Origin: Escherichia coli O127:H6 str. E2348/69
GTDB lineage: Bacteria; Pseudomonadota; Gammaproteobacteria; Enterobacterales; Enterobacteriaceae
Reading direction: 5' to 3' (one strand)
Assembly (NCBI RefSeq): GCF_000026545.1
Contig: NC_011601.1
DNA length: 64,000 bases
The position numbers were made by a program. Positions 1 through 3,000 of this stretch are shown here, piece after piece. Positions within the stretch are counted from its first letter, which is position 1, and each line of letters opens with the position of its first letter.

Positions 1-3000
1 ATGCTCACCACGTTATATGGATGATAAATAATGGTGAGATTCCATTAGGGTATAAAATTGATCATATAAATGGAGTAAGGTCAGATAATAGGCTATCTAA
101 TCTTCGATTGGTTACACACCAACAGAATGCACAGAACCAAAAGAGAAAAATAACCAATTCGTCAGGAGTGACTGGAGTGTATTTCAATAAAGAGAGATGC
201 AAGTGGATTGCGAATATATGCGTAGATGGGCGCACCAAATATCTTGGAATATTTGCTAGCATCATTGACGCTATTGCAGAAAGGAAGAGGGCAGAAAAAG
301 AACTGGGTTTTCATGAAAACCATGGCAGACCATAACTGCGCAGAACTGATGAGCGATCCGAATAGCTCAATGTACGAGGAAGAAGACGATGGTGATTAGC
401 CGATACGGAAAAATAACGTTTAAACATTTTCAAGACAATCCAACATGGGCTGCTGCGGCTGGATATGACTTTAATTATTTTGATTGTCTGTCAGTCGCAT
501 GTATTGCAACTACCAATGTTGCTAACAACATAATCGATGAATTCTTGGATTTTCCAGACTATCAGGTCAGAGAGTTGCCTGCATTTTTTGTGAAAGTATC
601 TGTTGCTACAGCTCTGTTATTTATTTTGTTATTCGCATATCCATTGCTTGCCGTATTTGTTTATGTGAGATGCAAGCACTCACAAAATGAATACAGCGGA
701 GAGCATACCGATATTACCAGCCAAAATATGCGAGTGTGGTTGAGGAGATGCCAAGAGAAATGGGGGAGAAGTCATGGCTAACCTACGCAAAGAAGCGCGC
801 GGAAGAGAATGCCAGGTACGTATTTACGGCGTATGCAATGGAAATCCTGAAACTACAGTTCTGGCACATTACCGGATGGCTGGAATTTGCGGAACGGGAA
901 TGAAACCTGACGACCTGATCGGCGCATGGGCTTGTAGTGACTGCCACGCGGAGATCGACCGACGCACAAGGATTCTCGACAACAAAGACGCCAGACTTTA
1001 CCACCTCGAAGGCGTGATCAGGACGCAGGCGATACTGCTGAAGGAGGGGAAGATTAAGTCATGAACGAATATCAGTTTGTGCTTCCATACCCGCCGTCGG
1101 TGAACACCTACTGGCGAAGACGGGGAAGCCAATACTACATCAGCGATAAAGGCCAGAAATACCGAAAAGACGTTCAGCAAATCATCCGCCAACTTTAGTT
1201 AGACATTTTCACCAAATCACGACTCCGCATCAAAGTCATCGCAGACGTTCCAGACTCCCGCCGCCGCGACCTCGACAACATCCTGAAAGGTTTACTCGAC
1301 TCCCTTATCCACGCCGGATTTGCGGAAGACGACGAGCAATTCGATGACATTCGCGTAATTCGTGGTGTGAAAGTACCAGGCGGACGGCTTGGAATAAAAA
1401 TCACCGAACTGGAGAACGCATGAACGCCACAATTCAAACGATACCAGAGCTTCTTATCCAGACACGAGGCAATCAGACCGAAGTGGCGAGGATGCTTTCC
1501 TGCGCAAGAGGAACAGTGCTCAAGTACAACCGAGACAGCAAAGGCGAGCGTCATGTAATAGTTAACGGCGTCCTGATGGTCAAACAGGGCAAGAGGGGAA
1601 GACGATGAGACTCGAAAGCGTAGCTAAATTTCATTCGCCAAAAAGCCCGATGATGAGCGACTCACTACTGGCCACAGTTTATTGGTTTTCGTAACTGAGT
1701 CATTTTATTATTTTATTGCAACTTTTAATCTTTTATAGTGCGAAATAAATGGAGCTGGCATTCATTTCGCACTTTATGTTTTTGTTGGACTTATGTTATT
1801 TTGATTGAATTCAATTCAGTTAAAAAAAGAAGGTGATTGCTCCATTTATAAATGAATAGTCATCCCCTGTCTTGAATTCTGATGTTACTTTATTAAATGC
1901 TAGTGTGAAGGCTACAGGTGCATACCCAATTGTTGCGCCAACTTGATATTCATCAACAGTTTTGTTTAGCGATACTGTTGTTTGTTTCGTCTGTATTGTT
2001 TTTCCTTCGAGAGTATAGTTGCGATTGACATCTCGTCTTTCCATACCTGCAAAAATCTTGTATTTGAATCCGCTTGTATCGGACATATGCATTAAACCAC
2101 GGGGAGCCAGCAGACCAAAGCCATTATCCGAATTGAAGGTTTTATCATTACCAATGGCAATGGTTGCGCCATATGCTACATATTGAAATAAGTTTCCAGT
2201 AACAGCAGAAACTTCAGGGTATAATCCAACATTAGCACCTAAAATATCCATACTTGGTGTCATGGATAGCATCCCTTTTACAGTATAACCGTAGCGATTC
2301 TCTATTTGATCATCCCATGCATGATATTTTTCTGCCCCAATAATCTCATGAGCTTTATTTTGTACTTTCTGACCGCCTGCGTCGGGGCCAACAACACCTA
2401 TGTCAGTACCTAATCGATAGCGAATCCAGTCATTCGCAAGGGAGTTCCATTCAATACCAGTGTGAGTGTATGCACTAAAAGCTCTGTCTCCAGTTACAGC
2501 TGTGTTGTGTCTTTTATTACTGCCTGATGGAGAGTAAATATCTTGCGCAATATGGAGAGATAATTGGCTCGAGTCTGAGATATCGTGGCTATATCCCAGA
2601 AATAAGCCTTGTGAGTAATCATCTCTGTTTTCATGTTTATTGCCATAAATATCATTAAGTATTGGTTGAAACTTCCCTGCATCATCATTTGCTAATGATA
2701 ATGCAAGGCTGTTCGCGATAGCTGAACACGTGGTAAATGACAGAGCAATAAAGACGCCAGCGATGACACTTTTTTTCATATGTTATTGTCTTCCTTTTTT
2801 TTGAATGGTGCGCGTATTTTACATACATGAGTTTGTAATACAAGGTGCGTAATCAATATGATGTTTTATAATTGCGTGAGACAATTGATTTATTCGTTTT
2901 TTATTGCGGTTTTTATTATCTTTTAATGTAGCGGTGTTTTTATTAAGTGTGTTTGCGTGGTGTTTTATGTTTTTTATAATTTTTATTTTATTAAATTTAA

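Follow-up and report, generated by a model that had tools for sequence, protein, structure and literature searches.

An open reading frame (ORF) of 130 codons in a prophage of Escherichia coli O127:H6 str. E2348/69 raises two questions: whether it is a gene, and what a protein of its predicted kind, small and membrane-anchored, would do among the early genes of a lambdoid phage. The ORF lies at positions 389..781 on the + strand of a 64,000-nucleotide stretch of contig NC_011601.1, referred to here as the window, with position 1 being its first nucleotide. The first kilobases of the window match the chromosome of enteropathogenic E. coli (EPEC) E2348/69 at 100% identity, and the window represents a lambdoid prophage of that strain. 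A first-pass annotation had described the ORF as an unassigned accessory gene of the variable nin region. We found this description to be accurate: the frame runs from an ATG to a TAA codon, its location is that of a lambdoid nin gene, it belongs to no curated family, and it is carried by 34-40 of 5426 complete E. coli genomes. The ORF is best classed as a functionally uncharacterized, variable early-operon accessory gene of lambdoid phages.

The arrangement of the surrounding genes shows that the ORF is part of the early right (PR/N-dependent) operon and is translationally linked to its neighbors by overlapping start and stop codons. In the RefSeq annotation, where its product is named "hypothetical protein" (WP_000237093.1), it is preceded by a repressor and a cro-like gene (cI-cro), cII, the replication genes, ninB, ninE, ninF, an HNH endonuclease gene and a second NinF fragment, and it is followed by the DUF1364 gene ybcO, rusA, ninH, an antiterminator remnant, an lpxR-like gene on the opposite strand, ylcG and Q. 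The ORF therefore has the positional features of a nin gene, being located between the replication genes and Q, co-oriented with its neighbors and overlapping their starts and stops. A Shine-Dalgarno sequence, GAGGA, occupies positions 376-380, and the ATG (389) lies eight bases further on, inside the last codons of a 3' remnant of ninF (GACGATGGTGATTAG), with an overlap of 11 nucleotides between the ORF and the ninF frame. At the other end, the stop codon overlaps the start of ybcO by 8 nucleotides (ATGGCTAA, 774-781), which is the phage-style overlap with the downstream DUF1364 gene noted in the first-pass annotation. That the nin genes of the early right operon are tightly packed and overlap is established (PMC8022706), and the ORF is presumably expressed together with the delayed-early genes.

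Several lines of evidence indicate that the ORF is almost certainly a genuine phage gene. Its product matches the profile of PHROG 2638 with E=6.1e-55 and 185.7 bits, residues 8-127 aligning with profile positions 1-120 of 120. A Buttiauxella prophage encodes an orthologue, also of 130 amino acids and 57% identical, within the same gene order ninF-ORF-ybcO-rusA. Between these two genes, the proportion of synonymous sites changed (pS) is 0.78 and that of non-synonymous sites changed (pN) is 0.29, indicative of purifying selection, and another three comparisons, with identities of 53-55%, gave a pN/pS of ~0.33. Complete E. coli genomes contain 34 full-length copies, every one of which is intact and annotated. 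Residues 9-43 are the same in all close alleles, and substitutions cluster at residues 94-130; the E2348/69 allele (K8, N100, S128) is a minority form, the common one being Q8, K100, R128. Finally, an AF2 model built from a 59-sequence alignment is confident, with a pLDDT of 83.5 and a pTM of 0.66. We also considered an internal start at the point where distant homologues begin, and rejected it: residue 9 is encoded by ATA, and the 130-residue subgroup conserves the MxISRYG extension.

The opposite view, that the ORF is non-functional and either arose by chance or is decaying in a defective prophage, draws on signs of decay nearby, namely the internal stop in rusA and the truncated antiterminator remnant. 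It can also point to synonymous changes that are few relative to non-synonymous ones among close alleles, and to premature stops at Q112 and C121, within the C-terminal tail, in two IMG/VR loci (L029 and L033) whose copies are otherwise 95-96% identical. However, the probability of 130 codons without a stop is only ~1e-4, as computed from the ORF's own base composition, and the PHROG family provides full-length matches. In addition, pN is far below pS in four independent comparisons at 53-57% identity, synteny is kept across genera, the N-terminal domain is invariant among alleles, and the model is confident. We consider this view exceedingly improbable and, judging by the comparative data, already refuted.

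Alignments of related prophages show that the ORF sits in a recombination-delimited, exchangeable cassette slot between ninF and ninG or ybcO. The left boundary is formed by the ninF 3' remnant (336..399, + strand), which ends in CAELMSDPNSSMYEEEDDGD and a stop codon. In five prophages the sequence is invariant up to ...GAAGAAGACGATG(A)GTGATT and diverges completely right after it (alignment A3). The right boundary is the ATGGCTAA junction (774..781, + strand), where the downstream start lies over the cassette stop; it is invariant whether ybcO or ninG lies downstream and for every preceding cassette (alignment A4). Its right flank in E2348/69 is ybcO (774..1064, + strand), a DUF1364 putative nuclease gene (Pfam PF07102, E=7.6e-44), and in other strains (L002) the same 130-residue cassette is joined to ninG instead. 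As the left boundary is sharp and the sequence resumes exactly at ATGGCTAA, the left side supplies a Shine-Dalgarno sequence and an ATG to any occupant, and the right side fuses its stop to the next start. The HNH gene given as the upstream neighbor in the first-pass annotation is indeed present and ends at 335, but it is inserted within ninF, so that the ninF remnant at 336-399 lies between it and the ORF.

About 1500 genomes match the flanks of the ORF. Other occupants of the slot are a 70-residue protein (PHROG 3973), an 89-residue protein (PHROG 1258), a KilAC-domain antirepressor-like gene, an HNH gene, or nothing. In one related prophage (L009), YbcO, NinH and LpxR are identical to those of E2348/69, including the YbcO product WP_000002251.1, and the slot holds the PHROG 3973 gene instead of the ORF. 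Absence from closely related prophages had been proposed as a sign that the ORF is not a gene; such absence does occur, literally so in L009, but it reflects cassette exchange with sharp junctions and is not evidence against the gene. We attribute it to the mosaic, overlapping organization of the nin region, which has long been described (PMC8022706, PMC2629481). The 89-residue PHROG 1258 occupant (L010 1554-1823) is itself related, at 42% identity and E=7e-24, to a gene of the P1-like SJ46 and RCS47, where this relative (L004 3731-3991, L006 3698-3991) lies directly upstream of the PHROG 2638 gene. PHROG 1258 and PHROG 2638 are thus alternatives in lambdoid phages and neighbors in P1-like phages.

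The cassette is AT-rich, with a G+C content of 39% for the ORF versus 50-53% in ybcO, rusA and ninH (~51% for the neighbors overall). Together with its patchy presence as an extra gene, this is reminiscent of the phage genes known as morons. Morons, however, have their own promoter and terminator, whereas a consensus scan of window positions 1-2000 found no + strand sigma-70-like promoter and no intrinsic-terminator-like site. Because no such site was found, the ORF is an in-operon exchangeable cassette and not a moron. Like the named nin genes, it is tightly packed after the replication genes and before Q, overlaps its neighbors at start and stop codons, and is present or absent in a mosaic pattern whose sharp boundaries coincide with gene ends. 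It differs from them in its rarity in E. coli and in the lack of homology to any of them in Pfam, PHROG and NCBIfam comparisons. To our knowledge, the characterized nin proteins are soluble nucleic-acid enzymes or zinc-finger-like proteins, whereas the product of this ORF has a predicted transmembrane (TM) helix.

We next consider the protein family. When 1.84 billion cluster representatives (clusters at 50% identity) were searched exhaustively with the profile, 54 proteins of 58-131 amino acids were retrieved at E<=1e-3, and all 59 relatives that we collected match PHROG 2638. The first-pass annotation had recognized no family, which is correct for Pfam, NCBIfam and PADLOC but overlooks this PHROG. 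PHROG 2638 carries no annotation, so that membership is silent on function, and all named members are labeled 'hypothetical' or 'uncharacterised'. Searches of the ORF product against Pfam gave Kinocilin as the best match, at 12 bits against a cut-off of 27, and the best NCBIfam match scored 15.5 bits against a cut-off of 120. Across the 59 relatives, Pfam revealed no shared family, only chance-level matches, and none of the PADLOC defense models matched the ORF product at E<=1. Among PDB sequences, the best E reached by a profile search was 0.22, and a Foldseek search of the AF2 model against the PDB a best E of 1.2; against BFVD, Foldseek returned only one unnamed 109-residue protein (E=2.6e-3), probably a family member. 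The sequence-profile and structure-based searches proposed earlier as a check thus yielded no match to a named nin-region protein or to a known fold. Our literature search found no paper that names the RefSeq accessions or the PHROG number, and two papers that screened phage accessory genes neither show the family motif in their supplements nor include the family among their 200 tested genes. The ORF is a case of phage "dark matter" that is already catalogued in RefSeq and PHROGs, and it represents no new kind of system.

The predicted architecture of the protein comprises three parts. The N-terminal domain (residues 1-65, 389..583, + strand), delineated from alignments A1/A2, the AF2 model and charge counts, is acidic, with 4 K/R versus 8 D/E, and is predicted to be periplasmic. 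It contains the best-conserved motif of the family, T-x2-H-F-x3-P-x-W-A-A-A-A-G-Y-D-F-N-Y-F-D-C-L-S, at residues 10-35 (nucleotides 416-493). Within the closer half of the family, T10, H13-F14, P18, A21, A24-G25-Y26, F28-N29, D32-C33 and S35 are invariant, and across the full family the signature shrinks to F14, P18, G25-Y26 and usually D-C. The second part is a predicted TM helix (residues 70-93, 596..667, + strand) that carries a Y84-P85-x-x-(F/A)-(W/V) motif and is supported by hydropathy, alignment A2 and AF2. Its Kyte-Doolittle mean reaches 2.3-2.6 over 19-residue windows, and in relatives the corresponding stretch, made up of 20-36 uncharged residues, is preceded by a D-x-x-V-R-E-L/I motif and has Y-P-(F/L)-x-F-W as its conserved core. 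The third part is a basic C-terminal tail (residues 94-130, 668..778, + strand; 7 K/R in 37), delineated by charge bias and allele variation and predicted to be cytoplasmic. This tail is the most variable part of the protein, ranging from 5 to 50 residues across the family and containing up to 14 K/R among 38 residues in the P1-like subgroup. Compared with distant members, the lambdoid subgroup has a longer tail and an extra 8-residue N-terminal beta-hairpin (MxISRYGx). In the AF2 model, a beta-hairpin at residues 2-9 is followed by helices at 11-16, 18-23 and 30-53, a single continuous helix of 42 residues at 60-101, which runs through the predicted TM segment, and a helix at 108-129 within the tail, which is predicted to be amphipathic.

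These features suggest that the product is very probably a bitopic inner-membrane protein. The membrane anchoring proposed in the first-pass annotation agrees with the single strongly hydrophobic segment predicted from hydropathy. The helix had been placed at the C-terminus, which is incorrect: it is followed by the 37-residue basic tail and is therefore central to C-proximal. As for orientation, the median number of K/R residues among the 59 relatives is 5 in the 15 residues after the segment versus 2 in the 15 before it, the bias being towards the C-terminal side in 50 relatives and equal in 5. By the positive-inside rule, the tail would be cytoplasmic and the N-terminal domain consequently periplasmic, and we regard this N-out/C-in topology as probable. 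A helical hairpin with both termini inside (N-in/C-in) was rejected, given that only 8 hydrophobic residues follow P85 and that the AF2 helix is continuous.

In its small size, single TM helix and strongly charged, basic tail, the product recalls a holin, an antiholin or another protein of lysis timing, although this outline is general and not holin-specific. The location of the gene speaks against such a role: the ORF precedes Q in the early operon and is outside the late lysis cassette, and a related prophage with the same ORF has its own holin, lysozyme and lysis protein downstream of Q. In Kagunavirus, moreover, the family gene is attached to a helicase operon, and no holin family in Pfam or PHROGs is matched. 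We consider a lysis function very unlikely.

The distribution of the family is broader than its size would suggest: it takes in temperate and strictly virulent phages of Enterobacterales, and every relative belongs to a series of early or replication genes that share one orientation. Lambdoid prophages with a member are found in Escherichia, Salmonella, Klebsiella, Enterobacter and Buttiauxella. Members are also carried by P1-like phages and phage-plasmids (SJ46, RCS47 and 257 PLSDB records, most of them non-mobilizable), by phages of Proteus, Providencia and Morganella, by virulent Dickeya jumbo phages, and by Yersinia phage P840, where the gene lies among recombination genes. The 'conotoxin' label on ORF53 of this phage (vB_YenS-P840, L003 3998-4357) is unsupported by any search and is apparently an annotation artefact. 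In virulent Kagunavirus phages, among them Escherichia phage Sciku (L095 1743-4297), the family gene shares 4 nucleotides with the 3' end of the helicase-primase gene, up to and including its stop, and is followed by an annotated terminator, thereby closing the helicase operon. In three other lineages (L097, L099, L005), it lies one or two small genes past an SF2 helicase and ahead of a primase or primase-polymerase; this helicase-...-primase/polymerase order is seen in metagenomic contigs, and linkage to early replication genes also in Gorganvirus-like ones. The recurring neighbors are only generic nin genes (ninF, ninG, ninB, rusA, methyltransferase) or lineage-specific genes.

Such positions raise the possibility that the protein is a membrane tether or organizer of phage DNA replication or recombination, comparable to p16.7 or p1 of phi29. 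Its basic tail, or its N-terminal domain if that domain were inside, would then hold the replisome, a nin recombination protein or the replicating genome at the inner membrane. The overlap with helicase-primase in Kagunavirus, the location between helicase and primase-polymerase in the three further lineages, the recombination genes around it in the nin region and in phage P840, and the K/R-rich tail of the P1-like subgroup are all in line with this idea. Phage phi29 p16.7 is a membrane protein that organizes phage DNA replication, with its anchor at the N-terminus and a dimeric DNA-binding domain at the C-terminus. Like the ORF product, it has 130 residues and a single TM helix and is encoded by an early gene linked to replication genes. 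The ORF product, in contrast, has a central TM helix, a conserved domain that is N-terminal and predicted to be periplasmic, and a short and variable cytoplasmic tail, and the PDB sequence and fold searches gave no sequence or structural match. It thus shares the early-replication linkage of p16.7 but not a cytoplasmic DNA-binding domain on an anchor, and it has no similarity to any DNA-binding family. The part predicted to face the cytoplasm is the least conserved one, with a length of 5-50 residues, variation among alleles and truncation by stops in two loci. Furthermore, most genes in the early operons of small phages are replication genes, so that linkage to them may mean no more than shared timing, and most lambdoid phages that have the same replication genes do not carry the ORF. 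A tethering function therefore appears quite unlikely to us.

We tentatively favor a different explanation, in which the ORF encodes an early-expressed, envelope-directed accessory protein acting on a host target, although our confidence in it stays below even. According to this hypothesis, the protein would be made early in lytic growth and insert into the inner membrane, where the conserved N-terminal domain and the TM motif would bind a conserved inner-membrane or periplasmic component of the host, and this binding would remodel the envelope of the infected cell. The constraint on the N-terminal domain and the TM motif, set against the looseness of the cytoplasmic tail, is why we read the former as the parts that may bind a host component. 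The phages that carry the family differ widely in virion and entry route, which leads us to infer a host target rather than a phage-specific one. Its retention in strictly virulent phages and the apparent absence of a promoter of its own point to a role in lytic development, and we infer that the product is not a lysogenic-conversion factor. The likeliest pay-off would be either the exclusion of competing incoming phage or mobile DNA, or the neutralization of a membrane-associated host function.

Superinfection exclusion offers outward parallels for the first of these. T4 Imm, P22 SieA and HK97 gp15 are small inner-membrane phage proteins that are dispensable and variable between related phages, an outline that the ORF product would share if its inner-membrane location, predicted from hydropathy and charge bias, is correct, and T4 imm also resembles the ORF in being an early gene beside replication genes. 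P22 SieA is an inner-membrane exclusion protein, and both it and HK97 gp15 are expressed from the prophage. The ORF product differs from these families in showing no sequence or fold similarity to them (Pfam, PHROGs, and fold searches that were uninformative). It also departs from typical exclusion genes in having a single TM helix with a large, predicted external N-terminal domain, in not being independently transcribed, and in crossing many phage types. That the protein acts specifically in superinfection exclusion seems unlikely on balance.

The second pay-off leads to a closely related possibility, that the protein is an anti-defense or host-takeover factor which inhibits a host membrane protein, such as an abortive-infection or other defense effector, an essential envelope enzyme or a transporter. 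The gene occupies a hyper-variable slot between conserved genes, and accessory regions with such an architecture were enriched for counter-defense and host-modifying genes in screens (bioRxiv 10.1101/2023.04.06.535777). Early timing and presence in virulent phages would also suit this role, as would the conserved Tyr-Pro motif in the TM helix. A precedent for the latter is phiX174 E, a small single-pass phage protein that inhibits MraY through a proline-containing TM helix. Against this possibility, neither the genes assayed in the accessory-gene screens nor their supplements include the family or its motif, PADLOC and Pfam provide no link, and we know of no defense system that is targeted by such a mechanism. 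It also overlaps with the explanation that we favor, from which it differs only in target and pay-off. We judge it improbable.

Several observations weigh against the envelope-directed explanation itself. The positive-inside rule is the sole basis of the predicted topology, and the charge bias is reversed in 4 of the 59 relatives. Export of an N-terminal tail of 60-70 residues with 4-10 K/R is uncommon where there is no signal peptide. With regard to exclusion in particular, temperate phages usually express their known superinfection-exclusion genes from the prophage, and the consensus scan gave no sign of an independent promoter for the ORF. Exclusion proteins are also usually lineage-specific, and PHROG 2638 crosses very different phage types. 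The recurrent linkage to helicase and primase genes fits a replication-related role equally well. Finally, no partner gene is conserved across lineages, as judged by clustering of the neighbors in 76 IMG/VR loci and by Pfam and BLAST analysis of the immediate neighbors in the distant lineages.

Taken further, the envelope-directed explanation would make PHROG 2638 a hitherto unrecognized class of early effectors, common to lambdoid, P1-like, Kagunavirus, Gorganvirus and jumbo phages. Its members would have a periplasm-facing domain of ~60 residues without a signal peptide, built around a near-invariant F-x3-P-x6-G-Y-x5-D-C core and held by a Tyr-Pro-kinked TM tether. They would bind one conserved inner-membrane or periplasmic protein of Enterobacterales hosts and thereby close or rewire the envelope once the cell is infected, for instance by blocking foreign DNA broadly through a host target. 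This proposal is speculative, and we assign it a low likelihood.

The genes on either side of the slot show further rearrangements. Upstream, the window opens within the HNH endonuclease gene, of which it contains the 3' two-thirds (1..335, + strand; Pfam HNH_3, E=3.9e-15; PHROG 99, E=2.4e-46); the full gene encodes 168 amino acids and starts 171 nucleotides before the window. The HNH cassette is inserted inside ninF, with NinF fragments annotated on both sides, and looks like a homing-endonuclease insertion into a nin gene. The insertion point lies just after ...HVCE(H/R)C, in the second Cys pair (window 1-399; L001 5388-6100). Through the insertion NinF gains a different C-terminus (IYECLNMVEHNEKYKQHRRIKK), and the original 3' end of ninF is stranded at 336-399. 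Strain Ecol_276 carries the same insertion in ninF, and its HNH gene is 99.3% identical in DNA to that of E2348/69. RefSeq lists the E2348/69 HNH gene as an incomplete pseudogene, yet its 168-residue frame is intact (L001 5530-6036).

Downstream of ybcO, rusA (1061-1423) has an in-frame TAG after codon 45 (1196-1198), beyond which the frame is intact; RefSeq lists it as a pseudogene with an internal stop. The antiterminator remnant is 72 nucleotides long (1605-1676) and is followed on the opposite strand by an lpxR-family lipid A deacylase gene (1820-2779; Pfam LpxR, E=6.8e-40). An AT-rich spacer comes next, and then ylcG (3118-3240) and an intact Q gene (3255-3944). The arrangement from 1605 to 3944 suggests that a moron-type insertion took the place of an earlier Q gene.

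The slot between ninF and ninG-ybcO is precisely delimited, which makes it a convenient place to harvest candidate genes of phage-host conflict. The family of the ORF is small, yet it crosses temperate and virulent phages with very different virions, which points to a conserved target in the host. As a short protein with a sharp motif and a confident model, the product is an easy experimental target. If it does block the entry of DNA or disable a membrane-bound host system, PHROG 2638 would be a new family in a poorly sampled class of phage proteins.

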